Part shown: piece by piece, positions 13,152-13,667 of the stretch
How the letters are laid out: each line of letters begins with the position of its first letter
Numbering within the stretch: the stretch's first letter is position 1
Origin: a virus
UHGV virus genome: UHGV-0075053
DNA: 26,455 nucleotides
Reading direction: 5' to 3' (one strand)
The notes under the pieces: generated by a model
The model's database searches: none
The model's input: the letters and a program-made list of their open reading frames with translations, nothing else
Told to the model about the DNA's origin: nothing
Translations under genes and position numbers: made by a program

Positions 13152-13226
13152 TGGAGCGGGCAGCGGGAATCGAACCCGCATCATCAGCTTGGAAGGCTGA
13201 GGTAATAGCCATTATACGATGCCCGC
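13152..13226 (-). tRNA. glyT: tRNA-Gly (anticodon UCC), glyT-like
   Basis: Reverse complement reads GCGGGCATCGTATAATGGCTATTACCTCAGCCTTCCAAGCTGATGATGCGGGTTCGATTCCCGCTGCCCGCTCCA, matching E. coli glyT from memory. Confidence 0.85.
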
Positions 13227-13342
13227 ATCCTGGAACTCGGCTACCTGATTTTCATTCTGCACTGAATATCGAGAGAAGCTCTCTTTATTCGAGCCGGTAA
13301 GCGAACTTATCGTCTCGGGCTACGCCATCGCGTGGCCGAAAT

Positions 13343-13427
13343 TGGTGGTGGGGGAAGGATTCGAACCTTCGAAGTCTGTGACGGCAGATTTACAGTCTGC
13401 TCCCTTTGGCCGCTCGGGAACCCCACC
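13343..13427 (-). tRNA. tyrU: tRNA-Tyr (anticodon GUA), tyrU-type
   Basis: Reverse complement reads GGTGGGGTTCCCGAGCGGCCAAAGGGAGCAGACTGTAAATCTGCCGTCACAGACTTCGAAGGTTCGAATCCTTCCCCCACCACCA; 116-nt spacer to glyT and 8-nt spacer to thr match the host thrU-tyrU-glyT operon (from memory). Confidence 0.85.
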
Positions 13428-13435
13428 GGACTTGA

Positions 13436-13511
13436 TGGTGCCGACTACCGGAATCGAACTGGTGACCTACTGATTACAAGTCAGTTGCTCTACCTACTGA
13501 GCTAAGTCGGC
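13436..13511 (-). tRNA. thrU: tRNA-Thr (anticodon UGU), thrU-like
   Basis: Reverse complement reads GCCGACTTAGCTCAGTAGGTAGAGCAACTGACTTGTAATCAGTAGGTCACCAGTTCGATTCCGGTAGTCGGCACCA. Confidence 0.85.
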
Positions 13512-13513
13512 AC

Positions 13514-13590
13514 TGGACCGCCACCGGGGACTCGAACCTCGCACACTCAACTTAAAGGGTTGACGCTCTTTCCTGATGAGCTAGTGGCGG
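13514..13590 (-). tRNA. atypical tRNA-like gene, anticodon UUU (Lys-like) with unusual anticodon loop CCUUUAA
   Basis: Cloverleaf can be drawn: acceptor CCGCCAC/GTGGCGG, D-arm GCTC/GAGC, anticodon stem TCAAC/GTTGA, T-loop TTCGAGT, 3' CCA; but C at position 33 and an A-C mismatch in the T-stem are non-canonical. Confidence 0.45.
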
Positions 13591-13591
13591 T

Positions 13592-13667
13592 TGGTGGCCC
13601 TTGCTGGATTTGAACCAGCGACCTGGCGATTATGAGTCGCTCGCTCTCACCACTGAGCTAAAGGGCC
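13592..13667 (-). tRNA. tRNA with CAU anticodon, ileX/ileY-like (tRNA-Ile2 type; Met not excluded)
   Basis: Reverse complement GGCCCTTTAGCTCAGTGGTGAGAGCGAGCGACTCATAATCGCCAGGTCGCTGGTTCAAATCCAGCAAGGGCCACCA resembles E. coli ileX from memory. Confidence 0.7.

Follow-up and report, generated by a model that had tools for sequence, protein, structure and literature searches.

The window, by which we mean the whole 26,455-nucleotide stretch analyzed here, appears to carry a host tRNA block inside a lambdoid prophage. Five tRNA genes lie in tandem before the lysis genes, and three of them reproduce the thrU-tyrU-glyT segment of the Escherichia coli chromosome. Our results suggest that the presence of this block, with tyrU and both of its spacers, in the prophage is probably an artefact of assembly. 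The real element is a common lambdoid-prophage cluster of four tRNA genes, Ile2(CAU)-'Lys'(UUU)-Thr(UGU)-TAT-Gly(UCC), which lies ahead of the lysis genes and directly behind a candidate PR'-like promoter. This underlying four-tRNA cluster is real, ordinary and already widely annotated.

The tRNA genes and their place in the prophage

ARAGORN and the Rfam tRNA model RF00005 agreed on five tRNA genes on the minus strand of the window between 13152 and 13667 (Table 1), with Rfam scores of 44-74 bits, above the gathering score of 29. In the direction of transcription the order is CAU, 'Lys' UUU, Thr, Tyr and Gly, with spacers of 1, 2, 8 and 116 nt. The first gene is ileX-like, as the first-pass annotation had recognized, and is identical (76/76) to ileZ of the Stx phage Stx2a_F349. 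PGAP labels the same CAU gene tRNA-Ile in strain S51. The second gene has the anticodon loop CCUUUAA, which gives the anticodon UUU but places a C at position 33 instead of U. Alignment identified it as a homologue of the Stx-phage argN with an altered anticodon loop; its PGAP label is tRNA-Lys.

The sequences at the gene borders distinguish the five-tRNA form from the four-tRNA form. The phage-specific bases just upstream of Thr, at the 3' end of the 'Lys' tRNA, are ...GGTGGCGGTCCAGT. Thr is followed by TCAAGTCC in the five-tRNA form versus TATGCGGG in the four-tRNA form, and Gly is preceded by either ...TTCCAGGAT or ...CACCATAT. On the phage side Gly is followed by GTCAGAGTC, and in the five-tRNA contig the 116-nt spacer and Gly run on into GTCAGAGTCTTTCAG.

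The cluster sits between the antiterminator Q region and the holin gene, all on the minus strand, in the late-control and lysis region of the prophage. The five genes had been placed on the late strand between Q and the holin on first reading, and this was borne out, although Q itself proved to be split. Downstream of the tRNA genes lie the genes for the holin, a DUF1327/YdfR protein, lysozyme and Rz; upstream lie the Q fragment, RusA and a DUF968 protein. Q is broken by three ORFs on the opposite strand (13899-15446), with a C-terminal remnant at about 13700-13810. The annotation of strain S51 gives an 'antiterminator Q family, frameshifted' gene and a 36-aa 'antiterminator' remnant, and Q is intact in phage 606R7. 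The layout of Q, tRNA genes and holin in the window matches that of both.

A sigma-70-like pair, our candidate for a PR'-type late promoter, ends 10 nt before the first tRNA gene; it is only a match to the consensus, and such matches were no more numerous than in shuffled sequence. The gene for the large terminase (TerL) is truncated by another integrated element. Because Q is split and the large terminase is cut, the prophage is probably defective. We infer that tRNA expression in a defective prophage would come from the candidate constitutive PR'-like promoter.

Table 1. Coordinates of the tRNA genes, the host-identical tract and neighboring features in the window.
Feature	Coordinates	Strand	Basis
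tRNA-CAU, Met/Ile2 (lysidine) type	13592..13667	-	ARAGORN; Rfam, 72.5 bits
Atypical 77-nt tRNA, 'Lys' UUU	13514..13590	-	ARAGORN; Rfam, 44.4 bits (lowest of the five)
tRNA-Thr(UGU)	13436..13511	-	ARAGORN, Rfam; 76/76 vs host thrU
tRNA-Tyr(GUA), tyrU type	13343..13427	-	ARAGORN, Rfam; identical to host gene
tRNA-Gly(UCC)	13152..13226	-	ARAGORN, Rfam; 75/75 vs host glyT
Full host-identical tract, 361 bp (1 nt + thrU + 8 nt + tyrU + 116 nt + glyT)	13152..13512	-	megablast and alignment
206 bp unique relative to relatives (7 nt + tyrU + 114 nt)	13229..13434	-	alignment; BLAST breaks at 13228/13435 vs L060 and L121
Candidate PR'-type late promoter, sigma-70-like TTGCAA-17-TATTAT	13677..13705	-	consensus scan
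Class II holin, first lysis-cassette gene downstream of the tRNA genes	12644..12859	-	ORF; PF04971 on the same product; S51 annotation
Antiterminator Q, N-terminal part	15460..15819	-	PF06530 on the identical product in relatives

The host-identical tract and its distribution

In megablast searches the tract at 13152-13512 matched the chromosomal thrU-tyrU-glyT segment of E. coli K-12 at 361 of 361 positions, and the match was 100% in thousands of genomes. Alignment showed that the identity extends from 1 nt before thrU to the final base of glyT. Identity of this length, with both spacers included, rules out a chance resemblance. The first-pass annotation had described the Thr, Tyr and Gly genes as the host thrU-tyrU-glyT block with its 8-nt and 116-nt spacers, lacking thrT and tufB, and the alignment agrees with this description. 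By alignment and by the neighboring genes, none of thrT, tufB and coaA was found beside the cluster, and both flanks are prophage DNA. None of the ORFs of the window crosses the junctions specific to the five-tRNA form.

The relatives of this prophage lack 206 bp of the tract: spacer tallies showed their Thr and Gly genes 3 nt apart, with the sequence TAT between them. One four-tRNA relative from an NCBI assembly (L131) matched the window without a mismatch over the 4,400 bp left of the cluster and with 3 mismatches over 2,058 bp on its right. A second NCBI assembly (L121) and a further locus (L060), both four-tRNA, showed 3 mismatches in 12,456 bp on the right and 1 mismatch in 2,452 bp on the left, respectively. 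Among the relatives listed that carry the exact 292-aa protein or RusA of the window, which include complete genomes and two other metagenome contigs of the lineage (L136 and L138), all 20 have the four-tRNA spacing.

Only one other full copy of the five-tRNA form was found, on contig OBCT01000001.1 (L007) of a metagenome-contig collection. This contig has four-tRNA twins of its own, L016 and L044. On one side of the cluster they match it at 100% over 5,676 bp and on the other at 99.7% over about 5 kb. Structurally, they differ from it by the 206 bp only. The flanks of the window and of L007 are about 3% apart, and their Q regions are different. Because the window and L007 each have their own four-tRNA twins, the five-tRNA form occurs on two separate four-tRNA backgrounds.

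A single base within Thr provides a linked marker. At position 65 of the gene (window 13447) the window has the host allele T, versus C (T65C) in the ten closest relatives. We rejected the reading of T65C as a private SNP of L060, as the marker is common to all ten. Since the host allele at Thr 65 adjoins the 206-bp insert, the window differs from its own clade by a single contiguous host-type tract of 219-361 bp. The break points, for which alignment to the chromosomal locus had been proposed, could be bounded in this way: the left switch point falls in bases 1-64 of Thr or at the one shared base before it, and the right one lies within the 77 bp formed by AT and Gly.

BLAST combined with a scan for junction patterns found the five-tRNA form in none of 5,426 complete E. 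coli genomes; nowhere in these genomes did a match reach 80% cover of either the cluster or the 'Lys'-Thr-spacer-Tyr junction. At the same cover, neither was found in 50,697 phage records. The exact junction patterns were absent from the GTDB species representatives, and IMG/VR held no full five-tRNA copy. The four-tRNA form (Ile-'Lys'-Thr-TAT-Gly) was present in 495 of the 5,426 complete genomes (about 9%), on 90 IMG/VR contigs and in several sequenced phages, and a diverged four-tRNA lineage has the spacer TAAT instead of TAT. None of the 495 carriers among complete genomes and none of 97 IMG/VR contigs with Thr and Gly had the five-tRNA form. The reciprocal product, a chromosomal thrU-TAT-glyT, was likewise absent from all complete genomes.

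Three partial cases were found. A 3.9-kb contig from the metagenome-contig collection (L006) passes from the phage tRNA genes by way of Thr and the 8-nt spacer to a Tyr gene of tyrU type and then into other DNA, which we take to be the chromosomal region downstream of tyrT/tyrV. We regard L006 as chimeric; if so, it would illustrate that assemblies of this kind can switch paths at tRNA repeats. In L004 and L005, from one IMG genome, Thr, the 8-nt spacer and bases 1-35 of Tyr are fused to other phage DNA. These truncated-Tyr junctions were absent from complete genomes and phage records. L004 and L005 hint that host spacer and tyrU DNA once adjoined phage DNA in nature.

Assembly path switch, gene conversion or retained capture

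A look-up of the truncated terminase as an exact protein led to the source record. The window is 100% identical to the whole of contig ena:ERZ1741956:NODE_67_length_26455_cov_50.0404, which comes from a metagenome assembly. From the format of the contig name we deduced that a short-read assembler of the SPAdes family was used for ERZ1741956. Metagenome SPAdes runs by default with k values of 21, 33 and 55. The metaSPAdes algorithm follows a consensus backbone, collapses larger bulges than the isolate mode, disconnects weak edges and projects variant paths (PMC5411777). All k-mers of the window between 12900 and 13900 were present in the twin L131 and the K-12 operon taken together, at values of k up to 66; for L007 the same test held up to k = 78. 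The exact repeat shared by prophage and chromosome measured 77 bp at Gly. At Thr, a repeat of 78 bp was deduced from the k limits, and it is 65 bp in the T65C clade. The repeat-bounded ends, the short-read origin of the contig and the k-mer spelling indicate that the tract is either a path switch or a very recent conversion and not an old capture linked to the ileX-like and atypical tRNA genes.

We consider the five-tRNA form to be, with somewhat better than even probability, an assembly chimera built on a four-tRNA prophage cluster. On this explanation the extra 206 bp and the host allele at Thr 65 would most likely have been introduced by the metagenome assembler. The route that we propose assumes that the true prophage in the sample has T65C, as in all ten closest relatives. 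In the T65C clade, the prophage would share 65 bp at Thr and 77 bp at Gly with the chromosomal thrU operon, both longer than a k of 55. The short Thr-TAT-Gly link and the longer chromosomal Thr-tyrU-Gly path would then form two branches between the same two nodes of the graph. If coverage of the chromosome exceeded that of the prophage, for example in a mixture of strains, the weak prophage branch might be masked, and the prophage contig would be routed through the chromosomal branch, with its exit inside Thr and its re-entry inside Gly.

In favor of a chimera, the window, L007 and L006 all come from metagenome assembly collections, and about 600 complete or isolate copies, together with the 20 close relatives listed, have the four-tRNA form only. 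On the other side, a de Bruijn assembler normally retains a true Thr-TAT-Gly link and resolves it through read pairs, so a chimera needs that link to have been lost, that is, an imbalance of coverage. L136, L138 and several IMG/VR 3300... contigs of the lineage were correctly assembled as four-tRNA. The junctions of L004 and L005 also speak against a chimera, as an assembler could not compose them from a four-tRNA prophage and the chromosome.

The main rival, which we regard as possible but rather unlikely, is a very recent gene conversion by double crossover between a four-tRNA prophage and the thrU-tyrU-glyT segment of its own host, with Thr and Gly as the arms. Such an event would have imported tyrU with both spacers and changed C65 of Thr to T65, separately in the two lineages that led to the window and to L007. 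The tract is host-identical and ends within sequences common to both loci (65-78 bp at Thr, 77 bp at Gly), the linked marker at Thr 65 is of host type as well, and the same product occurs in two phage contexts that differ by about 3% and each have a four-tRNA twin; all this is as expected of conversion. Arms of 65-78 bp exceed the minimal homology needed by RecA or phage recombinases, which also favors it. Furthermore, Thr and Gly are host-identical in about 85% of four-tRNA loci with diverged flanks, which is compatible with occasional homogenization. However, an assembler path switch predicts every one of these observations equally well. Against conversion, no complete or isolate genome showed the five-tRNA form (0 of 495 carriers, 0 of 97 IMG/VR contigs and 0 of the 20 relatives listed), and both full instances are metagenome assemblies. 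Neither an older five-tRNA clade nor the reciprocal chromosomal product was found. If conversion were frequent enough to have marked two terminal branches, older five-tRNA clades would be expected, and they should persist because the cell holds no template for reversion; there was none among about 600 copies.

It is very improbable that the window retains an ancestral capture, in which the phage family took up thrU-tyrU-glyT and most lineages then lost tyrU. The host-identical Thr and Gly in host order are in keeping with such a history, as is the TAT spacer: it consists of outer host-spacer bases, so a five-tRNA-like ancestor probably existed, and the diverged lineage has TAAT. Retention in the window is disfavored because its spacers are host-identical and because the window, whose flanks are essentially those of its four-tRNA relatives, is nested in their midst; flank comparisons already place both five-tRNA contigs at the tips of four-tRNA clades. 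Over the 124 nt of spacer neither the window nor L007 departs from the host sequence, despite flanks about 3% apart, and the same TAT deletion would have to have arisen independently many times. That the window is simply the chromosomal thrU-tyrU-glyT-thrT-tufB locus, a danger noted at the outset, has a negligible chance. Only the 361-bp identity speaks for it; the identity goes no further than the 3' end of glyT, thrT, tufB and coaA are missing, and the alignment ruled this reading out, with Q, RusA, holin, lysozyme and other prophage genes on the two sides.

If the five-tRNA form is a chimera, short exact repeats shared by prophage and host, such as tRNA genes, can fake the capture of host genes in metagenome contigs, and apparent captures in such contigs call for checks at the level of reads. 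Should the form prove real, it would offer a clear-cut natural case of host-to-prophage gene conversion through tRNA homology, of modest interest for the upkeep of phage tRNA sets. The broader proposal, that prophage tRNA clusters are rewritten from a host tRNA operon in at least two independent events, with tRNA genes as arms of 65-78 bp, tyrU as a passenger and phage alleles brought back to the host state, is one we consider doubtful. Were conversion true, it would explain how Thr and Gly of the phage stay host-identical while their flanks diverge.

Origin and role of the phage tRNA genes and comparison with known systems

Judged by sequence, the Thr-Gly pair of the phage family is derived from host thrU and glyT. 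Thr is identical to thrU (76/76) and Gly to glyT (75/75) in about 85% of the loci, and the two genes stand in host order. In the TAT spacer, the first T corresponds to the base that opens the 8-nt host spacer and AT to the two that close the 116-nt spacer, a match that chance would give about once in 64 cases. The four-tRNA form is most simply explained by an old capture from which tyrU was later lost. The proposal that a phage had captured a segment of the host operon is thus upheld in part: Thr and Gly of the family are host-derived, but thrU-tyrU-glyT as a stable feature of this phage is poorly supported, as the relatives all lack tyrU. The Thr-Gly pair also occurs without the Ile and 'Lys' tRNA genes, in the Rac*W prophage of E. 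coli W and in phage phi467.

The codon counts agree with the usual explanation of phage tRNA genes and support the view that the cluster supplies tRNAs for AUA, ACA and GGA, codons that are rare in the host and enriched in the phage. Per 1,000 codons, ATA was counted at 3.1 in the host, 10.2 in the late genes of the window and 15.7 in its other genes. The corresponding values were 5.8, 11.3 and 18.2 for ACA and 5.9, 15.1 and 15.3 for GGA. The Tyr codons (TAT + TAC) stood at 29.4, 30.7 and 28.2, respectively. As Tyr codons show no such enrichment, tyrU would be a passenger of no evident use to the phage.

Lambdoid phages are known to carry tRNA genes directly behind Q, and the four-tRNA cluster belongs to this kind. 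The Stx phages carry ileZ-argN-argO upstream of stx. The first tRNA gene of the window is identical to theirs, the Ile gene and the second tRNA gene together are 91% identical to ileZ-argN, and the location after Q is common to both. The Stx phages differ in that argO and the toxin genes come next and in lacking Thr, Tyr and Gly tRNA genes. The accepted rationale for the Stx-phage tRNA genes is the supply of tRNAs for rare codons (PMC3636060, citing Schmidt et al. 1997). The same report describes tRNA genes for Thr(UGU) and Asn behind Q in SfI, Sf6, ST64T and phage 21, and an over-representation of ACA in the phage (PMC3636060). Compared by description, these phages and the window are alike in having Thr-UGU after Q and in ACA enrichment, and the partner tRNA genes differ.

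E. coli W offers a further parallel. Its Rac*W prophage carries copies of tRNA genes of the host thrU operon, published as thrX and tyrX (PMC3032704). In the RefSeq annotation the Rac*W pair is tRNA-Thr and tRNA-Gly 3 nt apart, with no Tyr, Ile or 'Lys' tRNA gene. The name tyrX looks mislabeled, because RefSeq shows Gly in the pair and no Tyr.

Two further systems close to the window are the host operon and the four-tRNA cluster of other prophages and phages. With the host thrU-tyrU-glyT-thrT-tufB operon the window shares the 361 bp, including the 8-nt and 116-nt spacers; unlike the operon it lacks thrT, tufB and coaA and lies inside a prophage. With the four-tRNA cluster of strain S51, vB_EcoM-606R7 and PhiR47_1, it shares the same four genes in the same place, after Q and the candidate PR' and before the holin. 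The 415 bp common to the window and S51 are 100% identical, and the window has an additional 206 bp, tyrU and its spacers, between Thr and Gly.

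The second tRNA of the cluster

The second tRNA of the window (13514-13590, minus strand) is a homologue of argN, a tRNA gene of Stx phages whose anticodon is UCG. The anticodon loop of the window's copy reads CCUUUAA, which gives an anticodon of UUU and places a C at position 33; the discriminator base is apparently U. Both PGAP and ARAGORN label this tRNA as Lys. The D-loop of this tRNA is shortened by a deletion of 1 nt in the contigs L004 and L005, and in L110, a member of the diverged four-tRNA lineage that has TAAT as the spacer instead of TAT, the differences lie in and around the anticodon arm.

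Thr, Tyr and Gly copies in other prophages and contigs

Scattered single-base variants were present in the phage Thr and Gly copies of about 15% of the four-tRNA loci (L010-L139), which are arranged Ile-'Lys'-Thr-TAT-Gly. Examples are A9G, G45A and T65C in Thr and T11C and C26T in Gly; Thr T65C is a marker of the window's own clade. Some of these changes may weaken the stems. A related pair is found in the Rac*W prophage of E. coli W, for which the genome paper reported thrX and tyrX as homologues of thrU and tyrU (PMC3032704). Because RefSeq annotates a tRNA-Thr and a tRNA-Gly, 3 nt apart, at this pair (NC_017635.1, 1518218-1518371; 21218-21371 of our locus L118), 'tyrX' appears to be a copy of glyT under the wrong name.

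Tyr sequences next to the phage Ile-'Lys'-Thr genes were seen in two other arrangements. In the metagenome contig OJZK01000151.1 (L006, 3112-3914), the three phage genes are followed by the 8-nt host spacer found between thrU and tyrU, a tyrU-type Tyr gene and then repeat DNA, which we take to be the DNA downstream of tyrT/tyrV. This contig is probably a chimera that arose at tRNA repeats. The other arrangement is a module of 274 nt that two contigs of IMGVR_UViG_2681813004 share at 100% identity. It lies at 2144-2419 of L004 (minus strand) and at 3009-3284 of L005, in two different prophage contexts within a single genome. In this module the Ile, 'Lys' and Thr genes are followed by the 8-nt host spacer and by a Tyr gene truncated so that its last base is the wobble base G34; an additional A completes the module. 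Its fusion partner in L004 is a DNA methylase gene, with the junction 117 nt into the gene; the partner in L005 is a stretch found after Rz in another strain. It was not found in complete E. coli genomes or phage records.

Interrupted genes and small RNAs of the window

Positions of the interrupted genes, associated genes and small RNAs in the window
Feature	Position	Strand	Remark
SSB	835-1260		in gene set beyond truncated TerL
DUF927 primase	1497-3623		in gene set beyond truncated TerL
Integrase	6981-8204		directly after truncated TerL
Large-terminase gene (terL)	8210-9403	minus	cut off at 397 aa
Antiterminator Q	15460-15819 and about 13700-13810	minus	two parts
sok antitoxin RNA	18496-18670	minus	Rfam; adjoins Hok/Gef toxin ORF
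DicF small RNA	24337-24388	plus	Rfam; early region

AlpA-type regulators and a Bro-N protein are also among the genes beyond the truncated TerL, and the region as a whole (700-9403) looks like a terL gene disrupted by an inserted satellite or integrative element. The truncated TerL is rare, with 14 carrier contigs among the matches listed in a look-up of ENA, JGI, Logan and NCBI sources. Q is interrupted at 13899-15446 by three plus-strand ORFs (292/303, 81 and 128 aa) for which no Pfam matches are on record. This insertion is widespread, its 292-aa protein being listed in 3,307 contig-index blocks.

Both sok and DicF are typical of Qin/Rac-like cryptic prophages, and the window contains both.
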